From Deltaproteobacteria bacterium (lineage in GTDB: Bacteria; Myxococcota; Kuafuiibacteriia; Kuafuiibacteriales; Kuafuiibacteriaceae), in assembly GCA_040218735.1 (NCBI GenBank), contig JAVJQW010000008.1, positions 447,147-511,146 on the forward strand: a stretch of 64,000 nt of DNA. The letters run 5' to 3'. The notes below the pieces were generated by a model that saw only the letters and a program-made list of their open reading frames with translations, was not told the origin of the DNA and made no database searches. Positions 39,770 through 46,264 of the stretch are shown one piece after another. Positions within the stretch are counted from its first letter, which is position 1, and each line of letters begins with the position of its first letter. The position numbers were made by a program, and so were the translations under genes.

Positions 39770-40510
39770 TCAGCCGTGCAGTCCACACTCCGTCTTCGTC
39801 CGGCCTCTCCATCGCCCCGCACGTTCGTCCTCGCCCGCCCCGACGGCGGACGTGCAGTGCGTGCAGCCGACGCTCGGGTAGCCGCGATCGTGGAGCGGGT
39901 TGTACGGGAGCGCGTTCGCGTGGATGTAGCGCCACACGTCCTTCGACGTCCACGTCACCAGCGGCGCGAGCTTGAGGAGGCGTCGTCCGCTCGGGAGCGT
40001 CGCCCACTGGAGCATCGGCGTCGCGCTGCGCGCCGCGGAGCCGTCCCGCCGAAGCGCCGTGATCCACAGGTCCGCGTCCGCGAGCGCGCGCGCGTTCGGC
40101 TCCTTCTTGCGGATCGCACAGCAGCGATCCGGGTCGCGCTCCCACAGACGGTCGCCGTGCTCCGTCGCTTGGGCGTCGGTCGAGAGCACCGGGAGCACGG
40201 TTCGCAAACGAAGGGCGCGTTCCACGCGCCACGTCTCGGCGAGGGCCTTCGTCTCCTCGAAGAGGAAGCCGGTGTCGATCGTGTAGACCTGAACGCGCGG
40301 ATCGATCTGCTGCGCCGCGTGGATCAAACAGAGCCCCGTCGCACCGAAAGCCGTCGACACAACCGCGCGTGCGCCGAACAGCTCCAACGCGGCTTGCAAG
40401 CTAGCTTGCCAACCGGCGCGTTCGAGCTCGGCCGAGCGTGCCTCGACGGACACACCGCTCAGGAAAAGCGAGGTCGGATCCCCGACCGGGATTGACGGCG
40501 TTGCAGACAC
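39770..40510 (-). CDS. cysH: (Phospho)adenylyl-sulfate reductase, Fe-S (APS reductase) type
   Basis: IDTGFLF, CCAIRK, YPSVGCTHCT, ERAGRW, ECGLH; strong GGAGG SD 8 nt before the GTG. Confidence 0.93.
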   Translation of the reverse strand: MSATPSIPVGDPTSLFLSGVSVEARSAELERAGWQASLQAALELFGARAVVSTAFGATGLCLIHAAQQIDPRVQVYTIDTGFLFEETKALAETWRVERALRLRTVLPVLSTDAQATEHGDRLWERDPDRCCAIRKKEPNARALADADLWITALRRDGSAARSATPMLQWATLPSGRRLLKLAPLVTWTSKDVWRYIHANALPYNPLHDRGYPSVGCTHCTSAVGAGEDERAGRWRGRTKTECGLHG

Positions 40511-40542
40511 AGCAGTAGCCTCCTCCTCGGTTCGTTCGAGTC

Positions 40543-40635
40543 ATGGTGTCGATGCCCGCCAGTTCTGCATCTACCCATTCGACGGCTACGTGTGTCTGCG
40601 CCTGTTGTTGTACCTGTCTTTGGCCCTGCGGCTGA
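40543..40635 (+). CDS. Poly-cysteine leader peptide (candidate attenuator uORF), MVSMPASSASTHSTATCVCACCCTCLWPCG
   Basis: 30 codons, with 7 Cys in the last 14 (5 of them TGT); lies directly upstream of the sulfur assimilation operon. Confidence 0.75.
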   Translation: MVSMPASSASTHSTATCVCACCCTCLWPCG

Positions 40636-40660
40636 AGAGGGGACTTCGACTTTTCTCGCG

Positions 40661-40778
40661 CGAACGCGCTCCCACGAACCCTCCTCCTCAGACCGTTAGG
40701 GCCGATCGCCACGCGTCGGTGTCATCTCGGTTCGCTTCGTCGCGCGTCTGATCGCGCGGCGAGCACGGAGGCGTTCGT
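40661..40778 (+). promoter_or_regulatory. Putative anti-SD/SD sequestering structure
   Basis: ACGAACCCTCC (40674-40684) and CGAACGCGCTCC (40661-40672) are each complementary, with one bulge, to GGAGGCGTTCG(T) (40767-40778) just before ATG 40779. Confidence 0.55.
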
Positions 40779-41540
40779 ATGGAAATCTCCGGAGCCCTCG
40801 GGCTCCTCGTCCCCCTGATCGGTCTCGTGACCGGCCTGCTCGTCGGCGCGACCGGCGTCGGTGGTGCTGCGCTCGTCACGCCCGCCCTCGTCCTGGGTCT
40901 CGGCGTGCCGGTGCCCGTCGCCGTCGGATCGACCGCGCTGTTCGGCGCCGTCGTGAAGCTCGGGGGCGTCGGCGCGCACCGCACCGCGCTCGTCGAGGAA
41001 CGACGCTTGCTGCTCGGGTCGCTCACGGGGAGCCTCCCGGGCGTCGCACTCGGCGTCTTCGCGCTGCGTTTCCTCGGCGACCGTGGCGACGTCGGGCTCG
41101 AGCCGATCCTGGGTGTTCTGCTCGTCGTCGCGGCCGCCGCGACGCTCGCCTCCACGTTTCGGCCTCCCGCGAGCCCGCTGTTCTTCGTCCCGCCTTCGGC
41201 CCTGCCGTTCGCCGCGGTGCCGCTCGGCTTCGCCGTCGGGCTCACCGGCATCGGGGCCGGTTCACTGTTCCTGCCGCTCCTGCTCGCCGTCGCGCGTGGG
41301 CGCCCGTTCGCGGGCGTCGTCGCGGCGGATCTCGCGCAGGGCCTCGTCCTCGCGACGGTGGCCGGAGCACTTCACCTCACCGTCGGACGCGTCGACCTCA
41401 CGCTGGTCGTCGCGCTCCTCCTCGGCGGGCTCCCGGGTGTTTGGCTCGGGGCGCGCCTTCACCGCGTCGTCGCTGCGGAGAAACTCGCGGGGCTCGCCGC
41501 GAGCTTCGTCGGTGTCGCCGGGCTGCGACTCATCTTCTGA
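40779..41540 (+). CDS. Sulfite exporter TauE/SafE (TSUP) family permease
   Basis: GATGVGGAALVTP and GLTGIGAGS duplicated motifs; about 8 TM helices. Confidence 0.88.
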   Translation: MEISGALGLLVPLIGLVTGLLVGATGVGGAALVTPALVLGLGVPVPVAVGSTALFGAVVKLGGVGAHRTALVEERRLLLGSLTGSLPGVALGVFALRFLGDRGDVGLEPILGVLLVVAAAATLASTFRPPASPLFFVPPSALPFAAVPLGFAVGLTGIGAGSLFLPLLLAVARGRPFAGVVAADLAQGLVLATVAGALHLTVGRVDLTLVVALLLGGLPGVWLGARLHRVVAAEKLAGLAASFVGVAGLRLIF

Positions 41541-41554
41541 AAGGAATCCAAGTC

Positions 41555-42112
41555 ATGTCGTTCATTCTCTGGTTCACGGGTCTCTCCGGTGCGGGCAAGA
41601 GCACGCTCGCCCAGTCGGTCTCCAAGGCGTTGCGCCAACGGGGCGTCGGGCGCCTCGAAGTGCTCGACGGAGACGAGGTCCGCACGCACATCAGCGCGGG
41701 GCTCGGCTTCTCGCGTGAGGATCGCCGCACGAACATCCTCCGAATCGGGTACGTCGCGCGGCTGCTGTCGCGGAACGGAACCGTCGCGATCACGGCCGCG
41801 ATCTCTCCGTACACCGCAGACCGGGAGGAGGTCCGCGCGGCGTCGAGCGCACCCTTCGTGGAAGTCTACGCGGCCGCCTCGCTCGAGGCCGTCGCCGCGC
41901 GCGACGTCAAGGGCCTGTACAAGAAGGCCTTCGCCGGCGAGATCCAAAACTTCACCGGCGTCAGCGATCCGTACGAGGCCCCCTCGCGCGCGGACATCGT
42001 CGTCGACACGGGGACGGAGACCGTCGAGGAGAGCACGCGGAAGATCCTCGCCGGCCTCGAGTCGCTCGGGCTGATCGAGAAGCCGAAACAACAGAGCGAG
42101 GCCCGGCCATGA
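41555..42112 (+). CDS. cysC: Adenylyl-sulfate kinase
   Basis: WFTGLSGAGKST, LDGDEVR, RDVKGLY, FTGVSDPYE. Confidence 0.96.
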   Translation: MSFILWFTGLSGAGKSTLAQSVSKALRQRGVGRLEVLDGDEVRTHISAGLGFSREDRRTNILRIGYVARLLSRNGTVAITAAISPYTADREEVRAASSAPFVEVYAAASLEAVAARDVKGLYKKAFAGEIQNFTGVSDPYEAPSRADIVVDTGTETVEESTRKILAGLESLGLIEKPKQQSEARP

Positions 42113-43476
42113 ACAGCTATCCCGTTCAGCTGGTCCACCTCGCCGGCCGCCGCGTCCTGATCGCCGGCGGAGGCGGTGTCGCTGCGCAGAAGGTCGTCGC
42201 GTTGCTCGACGCGGGGGCGCGTGTCCACGTCGTCGCGCCCGATGTGTCGGGCGTGGAGGCCTTCCTCCCGCGAATCCATCGGGTGTCACGTCGCCCGGTC
42301 CGTGACGAAGACGTCGACGGCGCTGCGCTCGTGATCGCTGCGACCAACGACGTCGACGTGAACCGACGGCTCGCCGCCGCCGCACGCGCGCGCGGAGTGC
42401 TCGTCAACGCGGTCGACGATCCACCGGGCTGCGACTTCTACCTCCCGGCGATCGTCCGCCGCGGTCCCGTGACGATCACGGTGGGCACCAACGGGGGCTC
42501 GCCCCTGTTCGCTGCGCGGCTGAGGCGCGTGCTCGAGGCGGCGCTCCCGACCTCGGTCGGGGAGCTCGGCCACTTCCTCAAAGCCGCGCGTCGGCGCGGT
42601 CTGAGGGGCCTCGCACGGAGGGGCACGCTGTTGAAGGCGCTCGCGGATCCGCACGTCGCGCGGCTTGTCGACCGCTCCGAGCAGGAGGCCGCGCTCGACC
42701 GGCTCGAGGAAGTCGTCTCGCGTGAGGAGGAGCGCTTCGACCCGGGCACCGTCGCGATCGTCGGCGCCGGACCGGCGGGCCGTGCGCTTCTGACGTTGCG
42801 CGCGCTCGACCGGCTCCAACGCGCCGACGTCGTCCTGCACGACGCGCTCGTGACACAGGAGGTGCTCGACGAGATCCCGCCGAACGTTCGTCGCGTGAAC
42901 GTCGGGCGTCGTGCGGGCGCCCGCGAGCCATTCCCGCACGCGTTGACGGAGCGAATGATGATCACGGAGGCGCGCGCGGGACGCCGTGTAGTGCGTCTTC
43001 ACGCGGGGGACGCGTTTGTCTTCGGTCGCGGCGGCGAGGAGCTCGACGCGCTCGACGCGGCGGGGGTTCCGTACGAGGCCGTCCCGGGCGTGAGCTCGGC
43101 GATCGCGGCGCCGGTCGCGGCGGGGGTACCGCTCACACATCGTGAGCTCGCGCGTGGGTTCACCGTGCGGACGGGGCACGTGACCAGCGGCCCGTCGGCC
43201 CAGCTCGACCGATCGGAGGAGACGCAGGTGGTGCTCATGGGCCTGCGCAACGTCGACGACGTGCTCGCGCAGCTCGCGAGGGACGGCATCCCCACGGACA
43301 CCCCCGCCGTGATGGTGAGTCGGGCGTTCCGCCCCGACCAACGTGTCGTTACCGGGACCGTCGCGGATCTCGCGGCGCAGATCCGCAGCGCGGCGATCGA
43401 AGGTCCAGCGACGTTGGTCGTGGGGCGCGTCGCGAAGCGCGTCGCCGCACAGGCACGAGAGGAGGTGGCGGCATGA
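42109..43476 (+). CDS. cysG: Siroheme synthase (precorrin-2 dehydrogenase/ferrochelatase plus uroporphyrinogen-III methyltransferase)
   Basis: GGGGVA, VNAVDDP..CDF, VGAGP, GDAFVFGRGGEE, VPGVSS. Confidence 0.9.
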   Translation: MNSYPVQLVHLAGRRVLIAGGGGVAAQKVVALLDAGARVHVVAPDVSGVEAFLPRIHRVSRRPVRDEDVDGAALVIAATNDVDVNRRLAAAARARGVLVNAVDDPPGCDFYLPAIVRRGPVTITVGTNGGSPLFAARLRRVLEAALPTSVGELGHFLKAARRRGLRGLARRGTLLKALADPHVARLVDRSEQEAALDRLEEVVSREEERFDPGTVAIVGAGPAGRALLTLRALDRLQRADVVLHDALVTQEVLDEIPPNVRRVNVGRRAGAREPFPHALTERMMITEARAGRRVVRLHAGDAFVFGRGGEELDALDAAGVPYEAVPGVSSAIAAPVAAGVPLTHRELARGFTVRTGHVTSGPSAQLDRSEETQVVLMGLRNVDDVLAQLARDGIPTDTPAVMVSRAFRPDQRVVTGTVADLAAQIRSAAIEGPATLVVGRVAKRVAAQAREEVAA

Positions 43477-45683
43477 CGGCCACGTGGAAACAGGTCTTGC
43501 GCATCCCGCACGACCTCGCCGAACAGATCGACCAGTTCGAGACGCAGATCGAGCTGCGTCGACGCGAGCAGATCGACGAGAAGATCTTCGCCGAGACGCG
43601 GCTGCGTCGTGGCGTCTACGGACAGCGCTACGACAACGGGCTGAGGCACGACGGTCGGACGCAGCGCCCGCTCGCCTATCGCGAGCACCCGACGAAAGGG
43701 CCGAACACCGTCTGGGACGCGCCGGGGATGCAGCGCATCAAGGTGCCCTACGGCGGGCTCGACGGTGCGCAGCTCGAGCGCCTCGCGGAGGTCGCCGAGG
43801 AGTACGCGGACGGGATCCTGCACGTGACCACGCGCCAGGATCTGCAGCTCCACTACGTGCACATCGAGGACACGCCCGACATCATGCGGCGCCTCGCGGA
43901 GGTCGGCATCACGACGCAGGAGGCGTGTGGCAACGTCGTCCGCAACGTCACCGGCTGTCACCTCGCCGGCGTGTGCAAGACGGAGTCGTTCGACATCACG
44001 CCGTACGCCCGCGCGCTGTCGCAGTTCCTCCTCGGGCACCCGGACGCGCAGGACTTCGGGAGGAAGTTCAAGATCTCGTTCTCGGGGTGCATCGATGAGG
44101 CGTGTGGGGTGGCGAGTGTCCACGACCTCGGCTTCATCGCGAAGACGCGAGAGGTCGACGGCCGCAGCGAGCGTGGCTTCGAGACGTGGGCGGGCGGCGG
44201 CCTCGGTGCCGTGCCCCACCGGGCGAAGCTCCTCTTCGACTTCCTCCCGGAGGCCGAGCTCCTCCCGATGACGCAGGCGGTGTGCCGCGTGTTCGCGCGG
44301 CTCGGCGAGAAGAAGAACCGCGGCAAGGCGCGGCTCAAGTTCCTGGTCGAGAAGATCGGGATCGACGCGCTGAGGAAGCTCGCCCTGGAGGAGCGCGAGA
44401 TCCTCCCCCCGGATGAGCGGTGGTCGGCGCATCTGCCGGTCGAAGGCGCGGCGCCGCCCGCGCTCGTGCATATCGGCGGCGGTGCGGGGACGCCGTGGCG
44501 GGAGCGAAACGTCGATACCCAGCGACAGGCGGGGCTGCACGTGGTCACCATCCCGCTGCCCCTCGGCGACCTGTCGAGTGATCAGGCGCGAGCACTCGCG
44601 CGGATCGCGCGCCGGTTCGCCCGCGACGAGGTTCGCACGTCGATCGAGCAGAACGTCGTGCTCCGAAACGTGGCGACGAAGGATCTCGACGCCGTCGAGT
44701 CCGAGCTTCGATCGGCCGGGCTCGCGGCGCCGTACGCGGGCACGATCGTCGACGTCACCGCGTGCCCCGGGACCGACACGTGCAAGCTGGGCATCGCGAG
44801 CTCTCGCGGGCTCGCCGGTGCGTTGTCAGCGCACCTCGCAGAGCACGCCCTCGTGCGTGAGGAGGCGGTCCGCGATCTCTCGATCAAGGTGAGCGGTTGC
44901 TTCAACTCGTGCGGCCAGCACCACGTCGCGGACCTCGGCTTCTACGGCGTGAGTCGGAAGAAGAACGGCTATACGGTTCCGCACTTCCAGGTGGTGGTCG
45001 GTGGGCAGTGGCGCGAGAACGCGGGGGCGTTCGGGCTCGCCATCGCGGCGGTGCCCTCCAAGCGCATTCCGGAGGTCGTCGACCGACTCACGGCGCGTTA
45101 CCTGGAGGAGCGCGGCGACGGCGAACGGTTTCGGGACTGGGTGCAGCGGCTCGGCAAGCCGGCGTTGCGCTCGCTCCTCGCGGACCTCGTCGAGGTCGCT
45201 CCGTACGAAGTGGAGCCGGCTCTCTACACGGACTGGGGTGACGCGCGGTTGTTCAGCATGAAGGACCACGGCGTGGGCGAGTGCGCGGGCGAGGTCGTGA
45301 GCGTCGCCGAGCTCGGGCTTCAGGCAAGCGAGCGCGAGGTTTTCGAGGCGCAGCTGGAGCTCGACGCCGATCGTTACGGTGCAGCGCGGGACAAGGCGTT
45401 CCGCGCCATGGTCACTGCGGCCCGGACGCTCGTCCGCACGGAGTGGCTCGACGTACCGGACGAACCGGACGAGGTGGTGCACGCGTTCCGTGAGCGCTTC
45501 TACGATACGAAGCGCTGCTTCGATCCGTTCGCCGGCGGGAAGCTCGCGAGTTACCTCTTCGAGGCGCACGCGTCCCCCCCGAGCGCGAGCGCCGACGGCG
45601 CACGTCGCGCCGTGCAGGAGGCGCAGCTCTTCATCGAGGCCGCGTACGCGACCTACGACCGAATCGAGAAGGAGGCGTCATGA
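43473..45683 (+). CDS. Siroheme nitrite/sulfite reductase (ferredoxin-type) with C-terminal extension
   Basis: RLRRGVYGQ, HVTTRQDLQ, RKFKISFSGC, CPGTDTC and SGCFNSCG Fe-S/siroheme ligands. Confidence 0.92.
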   Translation: MTATWKQVLRIPHDLAEQIDQFETQIELRRREQIDEKIFAETRLRRGVYGQRYDNGLRHDGRTQRPLAYREHPTKGPNTVWDAPGMQRIKVPYGGLDGAQLERLAEVAEEYADGILHVTTRQDLQLHYVHIEDTPDIMRRLAEVGITTQEACGNVVRNVTGCHLAGVCKTESFDITPYARALSQFLLGHPDAQDFGRKFKISFSGCIDEACGVASVHDLGFIAKTREVDGRSERGFETWAGGGLGAVPHRAKLLFDFLPEAELLPMTQAVCRVFARLGEKKNRGKARLKFLVEKIGIDALRKLALEEREILPPDERWSAHLPVEGAAPPALVHIGGGAGTPWRERNVDTQRQAGLHVVTIPLPLGDLSSDQARALARIARRFARDEVRTSIEQNVVLRNVATKDLDAVESELRSAGLAAPYAGTIVDVTACPGTDTCKLGIASSRGLAGALSAHLAEHALVREEAVRDLSIKVSGCFNSCGQHHVADLGFYGVSRKKNGYTVPHFQVVVGGQWRENAGAFGLAIAAVPSKRIPEVVDRLTARYLEERGDGERFRDWVQRLGKPALRSLLADLVEVAPYEVEPALYTDWGDARLFSMKDHGVGECAGEVVSVAELGLQASEREVFEAQLELDADRYGAARDKAFRAMVTAARTLVRTEWLDVPDEPDEVVHAFRERFYDTKRCFDPFAGGKLASYLFEAHASPPSASADGARRAVQEAQLFIEAAYATYDRIEKEAS

Positions 45684-46264
45684 TCCCCTCGAACGAAGCC
45701 ATCGCGCTCACCCCTCGTGCGGTCCCCGGACCGTTCGAGTCTCCCCGAATCGCCGTGCGGTTTCCGCTCGTCGACCCGTCGGTGGTCGACCTCGGTGCGC
45801 TGGTCGCCGTGCTCGGCGATCGCGTCGCGAACGCGGATGGTGACGAGGCGCTGGTCGACGTCGTCAGCTATGCGCACGTCCCGCGGGGACCCGGATTGCT
45901 GTTGGTCGGAGCCGACGTTCACTACGCGGTGACCGATGGACCCGCTGCGAGCGTCGCGCGAATCCAGCGGCGGCCGTGGGCGTTGTCGCCGCGACAACGA
46001 CTGTTGGAGGCGGTCGATCGTACGCGGGCGCTCGCGGAGCACATCAGCGCGGATCCGCGGAGCCCCGCCGGGTTCGCGCTGCGCACGGACGAGCTCGAGA
46101 TCGGGATCCACGACCGCCTTCACGCGCCGCCGAACCCCGAGACGTTCGCGCGCGCCGCGCCGTTCGTCGAGGCGGTCCTGTCCGAGCGCTACGCGTCGGT
46201 CGTCGTGACGCCGGCCGGTGTAGACGGCGGGCCGTTCACGGTGCGCGTCGTCATTCGAGCGTGA
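45680..46264 (+). CDS. Hypothetical protein coupled to the sulfite reductase
   Basis: ATGA overlap with a GGAGG SD; motif LVDVVSYAHVPRGPGLLLVG. Confidence 0.7.
   Translation: MIPSNEAIALTPRAVPGPFESPRIAVRFPLVDPSVVDLGALVAVLGDRVANADGDEALVDVVSYAHVPRGPGLLLVGADVHYAVTDGPAASVARIQRRPWALSPRQRLLEAVDRTRALAEHISADPRSPAGFALRTDELEIGIHDRLHAPPNPETFARAAPFVEAVLSERYASVVVTPAGVDGGPFTVRVVIRA

Follow-up and report, generated by a model that had tools for sequence, protein, structure and literature searches.

This locus raises the question of whether a short Cys-rich reading frame upstream of a sulfate assimilation operon is a chance frame, a peptide product in its own right, or a leader peptide through which the ribosome senses cysteine. 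A preliminary description of the window (i.e., the whole 64,000-nucleotide stretch of DNA that was analyzed) had placed such an upstream ORF (uORF) between ATG 40543 and TGA 40635, with seven Cys in its last 14 codons, five of them TGT, and had set it 143 nt before a TSUP-cysC-cysG-sulfite reductase operon. Codon reading agreed with the former, the 143-nt gap from uORF stop (TGA 40633-40635) to TSUP start was measured on the strand shared with the operon, and the identity of the genes was confirmed by Pfam. The features of the locus are as follows.

40543..40635 (+): putative leader-peptide uORF of 30 codons plus TGA, MVSMPASSASTHSTATCVCACCCTCLWPCG, by direct reading
40591..40629 (+): putative regulatory Cys-codon tract, codons 17-29 with five TGT and two TGC; 5' arm of predicted helix P1 in untranslated RNA
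39770..40510 (-): cysH, PAPS/APS reductase, divergent from the leader (Pfam)
40779..45683 (+): operon downstream of the uORF (Pfam and ORF reading), its successive ORFs overlapping
40779-41540 (+): TauE/TSUP transporter, first gene of the operon (Pfam)
ending at 42112 (+), start uncertain: APS kinase, cysC (Pfam)
42109-43476 (+): sirohaem synthase, cysG (Pfam)
43473-45683 (+): sulfite reductase, NIR_SIR (Pfam)
45680-46264 (+): 194-aa ORF with no family match, after sulfite reductase

Cys residues of the uORF occupy codons 17, 19, 21, 22, 23, 25 and 29, compared to a genome-wide Cys content of 1.04%, and codons 21 to 23 read TGT TGT TGT, a run of at least two consecutive Cys codons. The genome of the window (G000) is 68.8% GC with a GC3 of 0.90, and was found to have a single tRNA-Cys (anticodon GCA). 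When Cys codons were counted in 2611 long ORFs of this genome, TGT accounted for 20.8%, and a share of at least five in seven was improbable on this basis (binomial P = 0.0056), in line with the earlier remark that TGT is unexpected here. Over 16 uORFs, 71 of 106 Cys codons were TGT compared to 51 of 237 in flanking genes (Fisher p 1.6e-15).

Cys-rich stretches read out of frame abound in this GC-rich genome: stop-to-stop frames with at least seven Cys in 14 codons numbered 19, and frames with at least five numbered 741. The uORF region lies outside any GC3-signature ORF, its six-frame GC3 being 0.57-0.67 compared to 0.90 for genes. Outside such ORFs, only four start-to-stop small ORFs (sORFs) with at least five Cys in 10 codons were detected in 1.22 Mb, a background rate drawn from this one genome with a crude GC3 filter as the coding mask. 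Only two non-coding sORFs of the genome reached six Cys in 10 codons, the uORF of the window and a conserved element on contig C8. No Rfam covariance-model match was detected in the intergenic region at E values up to 10, and 12 related loci had no Rfam matches at the gathering score.

The preliminary description had made its reading depend on conservation of the Cys codons in relatives, and had pointed to orthologous operons as the place to look. Homologous Cys-rich uORFs were found in genomes from three further genera within the family (G001, G012 and G003), and a Cys-rich uORF was present at the same place in three of the four genomes with an orthologous TSUP locus; G011 has the same gene arrangement and no Cys uORF. 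In G012 the homologous peptide (..ASFASVNAATRCPICLCKCLRPWG..) precedes cysH on the same strand. Start, frame and Cys codons were maintained across the four genera, and the best-conserved stretch of the four-genus intergenic alignment was the TGTCTTYGGCCCYG block in the 3' part of the uORF. Beyond the Cys run, G000, G001 and G012 have in common the pattern ..AS.AS....T.C.C.C..CL[WR]P.G, and outside this run the peptides diverge widely between lineages. Near-identical strains from four DNA runs had an identical uORF and differed at only two sites, an extra T after 40650 and a G>A change at 40759 that converts a G-U to an A-U pair in the 40738-40761 hairpin; thus, strain variation provides no test of the structure.

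The cysH neighborhoods of Myxococcota were surveyed with one fixed detector. By this approach, 17 Cys-rich sORFs were found in 74.7 kb of non-coding DNA at 14 of 70 loci (the other 56 had no detector match), compared to 21 in 1.22 Mb when the same detector was applied to the whole G000 genome. Those with at least five Cys numbered 11 at the cysH loci compared to four in the genome (Poisson P ~4e-15, with kin among the loci that are not independent). In a survey of titled loci, Cys-rich sORFs were detected at 17 of 38 Myxococcota-labelled loci compared to two of 42 from other phyla, both of the latter on the wrong strand. The label in this count was taken from record titles, and the labelled loci include two whose titles read Comamonas sp. 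and Proteobacteria MAG; their cysH is 85-87% identical to that of the L067 query, a locus taken as Myxococcus-like. The titled-locus and cysH surveys share genomes (e.g., L115 matches G174 and L139 matches G027) and are therefore not independent. Among outgroup TSUP loci, an sORF with at least five Cys was found in none of 75. A TSUP-anchored metagenome scan yielded 60 loci, none above 42% identity and none from a close relative, and was used solely as an outgroup. Judged by sequence comparison, the Cys-rich uORF of the window is not a product of chance, since family homologues, enrichment at cysH loci and negative outgroup loci are all at odds with this. Putative poly-Cys leader peptides were found to be widespread in Myxococcota; in Myxococcaceae, non-Cys residues are also conserved within uORF1 and within uORF2.

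Several candidates were rejected. A conserved small ORF (..CCFRPWSCWAC) before TSUP in Thiomonas-like loci, an apparent Cys-rich sORF of Betaproteobacteria, proved to be an off-frame artefact, its Cys-rich tail being the CTG-rich coding sequence of the TSUP N terminus read out of frame. Detector matches judged to be noise were those of L033 (minus strand, 591-665), L050 (minus strand), L097 (plus strand, 79-204), L051 (antisense to rpsB), and L133 and L141 (minus strand), as well as 17 four-Cys, Arg/Ser-rich matches of G000. A G072 sORF (..KCCTCGCRPW) positioned after cysH is an uncertain case.

Upstream of the uORF a putative promoter was identified.

40492..40521 (+): candidate sigma-70-like promoter, with -35 TTGACG at 40492-40497, an 18-nt spacer and -10 TAGCCT at 40516-40521

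A motif of the form TTGAC-N16-19-TAnnn[TA] was present upstream of 15 of 25 Cys uORFs compared to 22 of 2000 random windows, and is kept in G001 as TTGACG-N18-TAGTCT; a stricter promoter scan made no call at the leader promoter site. From these motifs, transcription would begin upstream of the uORF, with a predicted start site at ~40527-40529. Since the predicted 5' UTR is then only ~14 nt and no Shine-Dalgarno sequence (SD) is present before the start, translation of the uORF, which we infer, is an assumption. The -10-like hexamer of the window ends 21 nt before the uORF ATG; in 13 other motif-bearing uORFs of Myxococcota the distance from such a hexamer to the start is 6-11 nt (i.e., near-leaderless). 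The candidate leader promoter shares bases with the SD of divergent cysH, which is read as the reverse complement of 40520-40529.

Between the uORF and TSUP, folding points to a set of competing RNA segments.

40622..40648 (+): candidate switch segment, comprising the last uORF codons, the stop and GAAGAGGGG; 3' partner in P1 or 5' arm of P2 (folding)
40661..40684 (+): tandem anti-SD copies, CGAACGCGCUCC at 40661-40672 and ACGAACCCUCC at 40674-40684; C-rich and G-poor
40675..40703 (+): predicted 3' arm of the P2 antisequestor, overlapping anti-SD copy 2 and the CCUCCUCCUC tract (folding)
40767..40795 (+): TSUP initiation region, SD GGAGG at 40767-40771 and ATG at 40779; predicted to be locked in P3 with 40668-40684 (folding)

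These segments suggest the following mechanism. When Cys-tRNA(Cys) is plentiful, a ribosome would pass the seven Cys codons to UGA, cover ~40618-40647 and keep 40622-40648 out of play. With this segment blocked, anti-SD 40668-40684 would pair with the SD and early codons (40767-40795), and TSUP would be poorly translated. Untranslated RNA would also be OFF, because the Cys tract is predicted to pair with 40630-40667 (P1). If charged tRNA(Cys) runs short, a ribosome stalled at Cys codons 17-23 would break P1 and free 40622-40648, which would form P2 with 40675-40703 and capture the anti-SD before the SD is transcribed; the initiation region would thus be open and the operon expressed. The preference for UGU, wobble-read by the single tRNA-Cys(GCA), would sharpen the sensor. 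The trp, his, leu and phe leader-peptide attenuators of Proteobacteria use four segments, in which pairing of 1:2 and 3:4 or of 2:3 is set by ribosome position. The predicted switch of the window has this same four-segment logic; unlike these attenuators, its output helix 3:4 is a predicted SD sequestor rather than a terminator, and cysteine would be the amino acid sensed.

The leader was predicted to fold with an MFE of -111.6 kcal/mol (z = -3.4). The preliminary description had proposed that two downstream segments can pair with the SD region and that the purine run at the leader stop could compete. Folding bore out the former, at -20.8 kcal/mol for 40659-40673 and -18.3 for 40672-40686, and the latter was recovered in the stalled-ribosome fold, where GAGGGG 40637-40642 pairs with CUCCUC 40681-40686. 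The P1 duplex was predicted at -39.9 kcal/mol. Predicted helix P2, of ~24 bp and -41.1 kcal/mol, is far stronger than P3 at -23.8; it pairs 40622-28/40697-703, 40629-31/40693-95, 40632-35/40688-91, 40637-42/40681-86 and 40645-48/40675-78, compared to GCUCC/GGAGC, ACGAAC/GUUCGU and CCUCC/GGAGG for P3. In folds of the growing transcript, P2 appears once 40700-40710 has been transcribed and then persists. The stalled-state MFE contains P2, and in the free-leader MFE anti-SD copy 2 is paired with the SD. Anti-SD copy 1 lies in the P2 loop, from which a pseudoknot to the SD, beyond the model of the folding program, is possible.

When folded with a ribosome footprint constraint, the leader was switch-like in G000 and G001, but no clear switch was detected in G012. 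For the whole RNA of G000, the SD unpaired probability was 0.001 in the free leader or with a ribosome at the stop, 0.22 with the ribosome at C21 and 0.43 at C23; when only RNA 3' of the ribosome was counted, the SD opened to just 0.04. In G001 the probability was 0.005 at the stop and 0.11-0.24 stalled, and in G012 it was 0.22 and 0.12-0.36. This probability is a poor metric, as the SD has pairing partners in either state, though very different ones, and in the stalled state is still held in a local 6-bp hairpin with 40786-40791. The energy of opening the RBS was therefore added as a second metric, and its differences were only modest: the cost dropped on stalling by ~2.4 kcal/mol in G000 (26.2 to 23.8), ~1 in G001 and G012, and 0 in G003. 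In G001, mutually exclusive P2-like and P3-like helices are formed from different flanking bases. Since the P3 columns differ between G000 and G001, covariation gives the predicted switch no support.

Ribosome stalling and an SD-sequestration output are what we infer from these modelled folds. That the uORF is a Cys-sensing leader peptide is highly likely, and that its output is the predicted P1/P2/P3 SD switch stands at even odds. For the overall reading, in which a ribosome-mediated, cysteine-responsive leader peptide would control the TSUP-cysC-cysG-sulfite reductase operon, we estimate a probability of roughly 0.75.

On the plus strand of the window at 40300-41000, neither a terminator scan nor a more lenient scan detected an intrinsic terminator. 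Strong terminators made of a hairpin and a U-run follow the uORFs of Myxococcus and its kin. The standard scan left the terminators of M. xanthus uncalled because of single-base bulges in their stems, and our own lenient scan with a shuffle control, together with RNAfold, was therefore used. By this approach, a strong hairpin and T-run was found after eight of 16 uORFs, whereas shuffled sequences averaged 0.55 of 16. Terminators after the uORF were detected in G261, G155, G117, G174, G204, G247 and M. xanthus AM003, the last with two in tandem that were confirmed by RNAfold. A hairpin in G003 (9 bp, 15-nt loop, AAAG before the U-run) is terminator-like only and was given no call by the standard scan.

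The lack of an intrinsic terminator after the uORF of the window bears on how the same poly-Cys sensor might act, since its output could instead be Rho-dependent premature termination in the 143-nt spacer. Release at UGA would expose C-rich RNA to Rho, and stalling would bury the tract in P2. The C/G ratio of 1.7-1.9 in 60-nt windows starting at 40636-40666 and the modest equilibrium effect on the SD are consistent with this output, which was also proposed for terminator-less Mycobacterium cys leaders in the accessible portion of Seliverstov et al. 2005 (PMC1262725). Yet the C-rich tract is a near-perfect anti-SD in two copies, which points to SD pairing, and the mycobacterial element tested experimentally acts by RBS sequestration according to the accessible text of 10.1101/834739. 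We regard Rho as an unlikely output. It is compatible with SD occlusion, and the two are not exclusive.

Two further explanations dispense with sensing. The Cys-rich peptide might itself be the product, i.e., a co-expressed metal- or sulfur-binding micropeptide or RiPP precursor, as the residues shared by G000, G001 and G012 beyond the Cys run and the non-Cys residues kept by each Myxococcaceae uORF would allow. This is very improbable, as the peptides differ widely between lineages except for the Cys run, terminators directly follow many uORFs and do so in tandem, the synonymous TGT bias is a signal at the level of mRNA or decoding rather than of the peptide, and no typical RiPP maturase or transporter was seen beside the uORFs. 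The frame might otherwise be fortuitous, lying in a structured 5' UTR or divergent promoter with regulation by a CysB-like protein or a translation-independent RNA. The abundance of off-frame Cys-rich reads in the genome, the betaproteobacterial artefact and the overlap of the region with the promoter side of cysH all lean this way. They are opposed by the position of the uORF outside GC3-signature ORFs, the retention of start, frame and Cys codons in four genera, the enrichment and outgroup controls, and the lack of an Rfam family at the locus, and a chance frame is accordingly given hardly any credence.

A Cys-sensing leader peptide has its closest counterpart in the polycysteine leaderless sORF attenuators of Mycobacterium smegmatis, described for Ms5788A and five other loci (Canestrari et al. 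2020, 10.1101/834739). As far as the accessible text of that report goes, both systems have a short Cys-run ORF at the head of a cysteine or sulfur operon, no intrinsic terminator (in the window), several loci of one genome that carry the element (the 'ribulon' of M. smegmatis), and stalling on Cys codons that is proposed there, and predicted here, to open a structure hiding the next RBS. Many Myxococcota uORFs, located 6-11 nt after a -10-like hexamer, also resemble its leaderless sORFs. By contrast, the window is of another phylum with no evident sequence relationship (judged without alignment to mycobacterial sequences), its uORF has a predicted ~14-nt 5' UTR, and in place of a simple uORF-RBS duplex three predicted helices compete, an antisequestor among them, and the anti-SD is present twice. 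Candidate cys-operon leader peptides of Mycobacterium, Propionibacterium acnes and Bifidobacterium longum (cbs) are, in the accessible part of PMC1262725, likewise comparative-genomic predictions with Cys runs near the stop and no obvious terminators, and pyrimidine-rich spacer tracts were suggested there as Rho sites; the Myxococcota differ in taxon and in the genes concerned (TSUP-cysC-cysG-sir, cysH and an ATP-grasp gene). The uORFC-8-2 motif upstream of Rhodobacterales cysS has a uORF with tandem Cys codons in a stem and was proposed as a Cys-tRNA sensor (Brewer et al. 2021, PMC8632094, available portion). Its terminator-type output resembles the leaders of Myxococcus, Pyxidicoccus and Corallococcus. 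It has two Cys codons, mostly UGC, before a tRNA synthetase gene, unlike the element of the window, where the seven Cys codons are mostly UGU, the genes that follow serve sulfate assimilation, and there is no terminator.

The preliminary description had cited poly-Cys uORF attenuators of Actinobacteria as background and suggested an analogous mechanism in a myxobacterial-like lineage. The former are known in that phylum, and Cys-codon uORF attenuators are also reported outside it, before cysS of Rhodobacterales (PMC8632094). The analogy gains from the Cys uORFs beside cysH in many Myxococcota, but its SD output is only predicted. Our literature searches turned up no account of Cys-codon leaders from Myxococcota, though a supplement or paywalled paper may mention them.

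The same genome carries a second poly-Cys uORF on contig C8, which precedes a RimK-like ATP-grasp gene (229219-230199 of that contig) and is kept in five of eight orthologous loci. We slightly favor a joint reading in which a phylum-wide, independently evolved Myxococcota 'cysteine ribulon' would use near-leaderless, UGU-preferring poly-Cys mini-ORFs as ribosomal gauges at cysH, the TSUP-cysC-cysG-sulfite reductase operon and the uncharacterised RimK-like ATP-grasp ligase. It would have two outputs: intrinsic terminators arranged in tandem for Myxococcus and kin, and for the family of the window a switch between antisequestor and SD sequestor. The ATP-grasp gene would have a role within this ribulon.

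In the work cited above, experimental demonstration of Cys-codon leaders is confined to mycobacteria, with predictions for a few Actinobacteria and for cysS of Rhodobacterales. If they act at several sulfur loci of Myxococcota, ribosome-based cysteine sensing would have arisen repeatedly and may be a general answer to the control of a scarce and toxic amino acid. The uORFs supply genome annotation with unannotated candidate regulatory sORFs, and would be a natural setting in which to ask whether reading UGU by wobble tunes the sensitivity of stalling. Myxococcus xanthus, a tractable model that carries Cys uORFs, would provide an experimental system with tandem terminator-type units. The poly-Cys leaders in five of eight orthologous loci also give a functional lead for the ATP-grasp ligase and, if the ribulon reading is true, this enzyme would be a new player in the supply of cysteine or a low-molecular-weight thiol.

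The ORF reported in the preliminary description was recovered with the sequence described: it starts at ATG 40543, spans 30 codons to the TGA at 40633-40635 and encodes MVSMPASSASTHSTATCVCACCCTCLWPCG. Its final 14 codons include 7 Cys codons as claimed (5 TGT and 2 TGC), and at least five TGT among seven has P = 0.0056 against the usage of the window's own genome (G000; 11.6 Mb in 70 contigs, 68.8% GC, GC3 of 0.90), where Cys accounts for 1.04% of codons and TGT for 20.8% of Cys codons (2611 long ORFs). This upstream ORF (uORF) lies 143 nt ahead of the first gene of a plus-strand operon, the content of which was confirmed by Pfam. The operon is tight, with overlapping ORFs, and, with cysH on the minus strand and the TSUP gene on the plus strand, the uORF is placed within a 268-nt divergent intergenic region. 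No Rfam family was detected over this region or in 12 related loci.

Features of the cysH-TSUP locus (genes assigned by Pfam)
39770-40510, minus strand, cysH (PAPS/APS reductase)
40543-40635, plus strand, Cys-rich uORF
40779-41540, plus strand, TauE/TSUP transporter
ending at 42112, plus strand, APS kinase
42109-43476, plus strand, sirohaem synthase
43473-45683, plus strand, two-domain NIR_SIR sulfite reductase
45680-46264, plus strand, 194-aa ORF, last of the operon, with a 4-nt overlap at the sulfite reductase stop; no match in Pfam or NCBIfam

The uORF was identical in all four DNA runs examined. In two DNA runs from a single study, near-identical strains have a T-run after 40650 that is longer by one T and an A in place of G at 40759; the substitution makes a G-U pair of the 40738-40761 hairpin into A-U.

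Off-frame reads of coding DNA in GC-rich genomes are rich in Cys, Arg and Ser; for this reason raw Cys-codon density is no argument alone, and 741 stop-to-stop frames of G000 were found to contain at least 5 Cys per 14 codons and 19 at least 7. A detector was therefore applied, with the same settings throughout, for start-to-stop small ORFs (sORFs) of 6-60 codons with at least 4 Cys per 10-codon window and no more than 25% overlap with ORFs bearing the coding GC3 signature. By this approach, 21 matches were detected in the 1,218,905 non-coding bases of G000, four of them with at least 5 Cys. Only the window uORF and MRPSFPGCCCLCLCGCWA, on contig C8, reached 6 Cys per 10-codon window; the other matches were Arg/Ser-rich and ahead of unrelated genes.

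Among 301 sampled Myxococcota genomes, 117 contained cysH, and 70 cysH neighbourhoods were scanned (30 from the search itself and 40 added, about one per further genus). Seventeen Cys-rich sORFs were found in 14 of these loci (74,660 non-coding bases), approximately 13 times the genome-wide rate. Those with at least 5 Cys numbered 11, in nine of the 70 loci, compared to 0.25 expected (Poisson P ~4e-15, a value that overstates the significance because the relatives are non-independent and the background is that of a single genome); such sORFs include ..AAVCCRCCCCCRGC (G150) and MNMQRALEPQFKITAQAACCGDTCCCCCCG (G049). In a second, overlapping set, consisting of loci of titled records drawn with a Myxococcus-type cysH query, 27 Cys-rich sORFs were detected in 17 of 38 Myxococcota-labelled loci, including Myxococcus xanthus AM003, Pyxidicoccus, Corallococcus and Citreicoccus, and 25 of the 27 were upstream of cysH on its strand. 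Two of the 42 titled loci from other phyla had one Cys-rich sORF each, both on the opposite strand. The outgroup control was a set of 75 TSUP loci outside the clade, 15 genomic and 60 metagenomic, of which seven had 4-Cys matches; there was no sORF of at least 5 Cys and no free-standing uORF ahead of TSUP. Taken together, these comparative results support the preliminary reading, and the window uORF is very probably a cysteine-responsive leader peptide.

A small frame of Thiomonas and other betaproteobacterial TSUP loci (L018, L019, L022, L026 and L027; ~2380-2489), M.NRSLGF...PSI.GL....CCFRPWSCWAC, which ends at the TSUP start, was rejected as an artefact, since its Cys-rich tail (..CCFRPWSCWAC) is an out-of-frame read of the CTG-rich sequence coding for the TSUP N-terminus. 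Its upstream part (M.NRSLGF..PSI.GL) is conserved too. Separately, the cysH locus of a record titled Comamonas sp. KCTC 72670 (L118) was 85% identical to the query cysH of L067, which we took to be a Myxococcus-like locus, and had the same tandem Cys uORFs; the apparent inconsistency of title and content suggests mislabelling or contamination.

Within the family, a TSUP orthologue was present in only 4 of 20 genomes. A homologous uORF stood at the same position in G001 (same genus; MVSMPHIQASTSAMTMCACCCCTCLRPRG), and G003 had one ending ..LMCSCCSCPKP; G011 kept the divergent cysH-TSUP layout but was without a Cys-rich uORF. A clearly related peptide, MSAAHASFASVNAATRCPICLCKCLRPWGRPLT, its four Cys codons all TGT, was found in a fourth genus (G012), on the strand of cysH and between that gene and a cysN/C-like gene. 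The uORF end (TGTA..TGTC....GCCC.G.GG) was the best conserved stretch of the region in the four-genus DNA alignment.

The C8 sORF (C8:229040-229096; L102:1322-1378), with TGT at 4 of its 6 Cys codons, diverges from an RNase R-like gene and lies 122 nt ahead of ATG 229219 of a RimK-like ATP-grasp gene (C8:229219-230199; PF08443, E 5.6e-5, slightly above the cut-off). A search of 41 relatives' genomes gave orthologues of this gene in eight, G000 counted in, and five of these loci, from two families, had a poly-Cys uORF upstream: G000, G001 (MRPSFIGLCCLCPSGCWA), G028 (..SSSCACCCCRLTSR), G037 (..GNCACCCCCSTAPQAS) and G009 (..NNCTCCCCCCCC, with a maximum of 9 Cys). Such a distribution suggests a cysteine regulon with several loci, and a function related to cysteine for the ATP-grasp enzyme.

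The uORFs shared further features. Of the Cys codons in 16 curated uORFs, 71 of 106 were TGT, whereas ORFs bearing the GC3 signature at the 14 loci that hold these uORFs had 51 of 237 (odds ratio 7.4, Fisher p 1.6e-15). G000 has one tRNA-Cys gene, with anticodon GCA, and with this tRNA alone UGU is decoded via G-U wobble, which we infer favours slower, more starvation-sensitive decoding. A promoter-like motif, TTGAC-N16-19-TAnnn[TA], was directly upstream of 15 of 25 uORFs versus 22 of 2000 random windows (1.1%), recurrently as TTGACG-N17/18-TAnnnT (window 40492-40521; L114, L113, L039, L044 and others). The uORF start was 6-11 nt past the -10-like hexamer in 13 of the 15, a distance suggesting that these mRNAs have little or no leader; for G000 and G001 the distance was 21 nt.

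A strong GC hairpin with a T-run followed within 160 nt of 8 of the 16 uORFs, compared to a mean of 0.55 of 16 over 20 shuffling rounds. In M. xanthus AM003 (L114:1011-1450), two tandem units just ahead of cysH each consisted, by RNAfold, of a Cys-rich uORF and then a strong 10-13-bp hairpin with U-run (UUUUCGUUU and UUUUCUUUU). In their predicted form they resemble classical transcription attenuators, here in a model organism. The tandem peptides (L114; also L067, L097, L115, L132 and L134-L138) were ..TPTAAPF.SRCCPSCACCRQPDLGC and ..ACCLCRACPACPPAGGCRASRS..

After the window uORF, no intrinsic terminator was found by terminator scans. The leader (40543-40800) had an MFE of -111.6 kcal/mol (z = -3.4 versus shuffles), with three predicted helices in mutual competition.

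Predicted helices of the window leader (SD GGAGG, 40767-40771)
P1: 40592-40625 (Cys tract) with 40630-40667; duplex -39.9 kcal/mol
P2, antisequestor: 40622-40648 (last codons, stop and GAAGAGGGG) with 40675-40703 (3' arm elements CGAA, CUCCUC, UCAG, CCG and UAGGGCC); duplex -41.1 kcal/mol
P3, SD sequestor: 40668-40684 with 40767-40795, enclosing the SD and codons 5-6 (GCUCC:GGAGC, ACGAAC:GUUCGU, CCUCC:GGAGG); -23.8 kcal/mol

In constrained folds of G000, the SD unpaired probability was 0.001 both for free RNA and when the ribosome footprint covered the stop codon. With the footprint on the Cys tract P2 appeared and the SD opened to 0.22 (Cys21) and 0.43 (Cys23), but only to 0.04 with the 3' RNA alone. 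P2 was part of the MFE structure when the RNA downstream of a Cys21-stalled ribosome was folded, and in the folds it forms once 40700-40710 is transcribed; the SD freed from P3 remained in a local 6-bp hairpin. Of the two proposed anti-SD segments, copy 1 (40661-40672) paired with the SD (-20.8 kcal/mol) but escaped capture by P2. In these models G001 keeps the switch logic using different bases: a P2-like helix (GGCCC:GGGCC plus GAGGGUUC:GAAUCCUC) excludes a 9-bp sequestor (CCUCUGUCG:CGACGGAGG), and the SD unpaired probability was 0.005 with the ribosome at the stop and 0.11-0.24 with it stalled. The GCCC(U)G conserved at the end of the uORF paired with a downstream (C)AGGGC in all four genera; covariation was absent because P3 is not conserved column for column. 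The difference in RBS-opening cost was ~2.4 kcal/mol for G000, ~1 for G001 and G012 and 0 for G003, and no clear switch was found in footprint-constrained folds of G012. In the G003 leader (L033/L003, L003:1298-1400), a Pro codon directly precedes UGA (..MCSCCSCPKP), a 9-bp helix begins in the last codons and stop, and a second 9-bp hairpin, AAAG and a U-run follow, terminator-like yet uncalled by the terminator scan.

The output in the window's lineage would most likely be translational, via SD sequestration. Rho-dependent output in the spacer may also operate, possibly alongside it: the spacer just past the uORF stop is rich in C and poor in G (C/G 1.7-1.9), and such an output was once suggested for mycobacterial cys leaders (PMC1262725). 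The closest known system is that of the polycysteine leaderless sORFs of Mycobacterium smegmatis, where Cys-tract stalling is proposed to lift the sequestration of the RBS and six loci show a joint response (10.1101/834739). Actinobacterial cys leaders without terminators were predicted in 2005 (PMC1262725), and uORFC-8-2, a terminator-bearing uORF with two Cys codons, precedes cysS in Rhodobacterales (PMC8632094). Thus, Cys leader peptides are of a known kind. A literature search returned no description of Cys-codon leaders in Myxococcota within the literature accessible to it, and within that scope the occurrence of such leaders in this phylum, their breadth and their two types of output seem not to have been described before.
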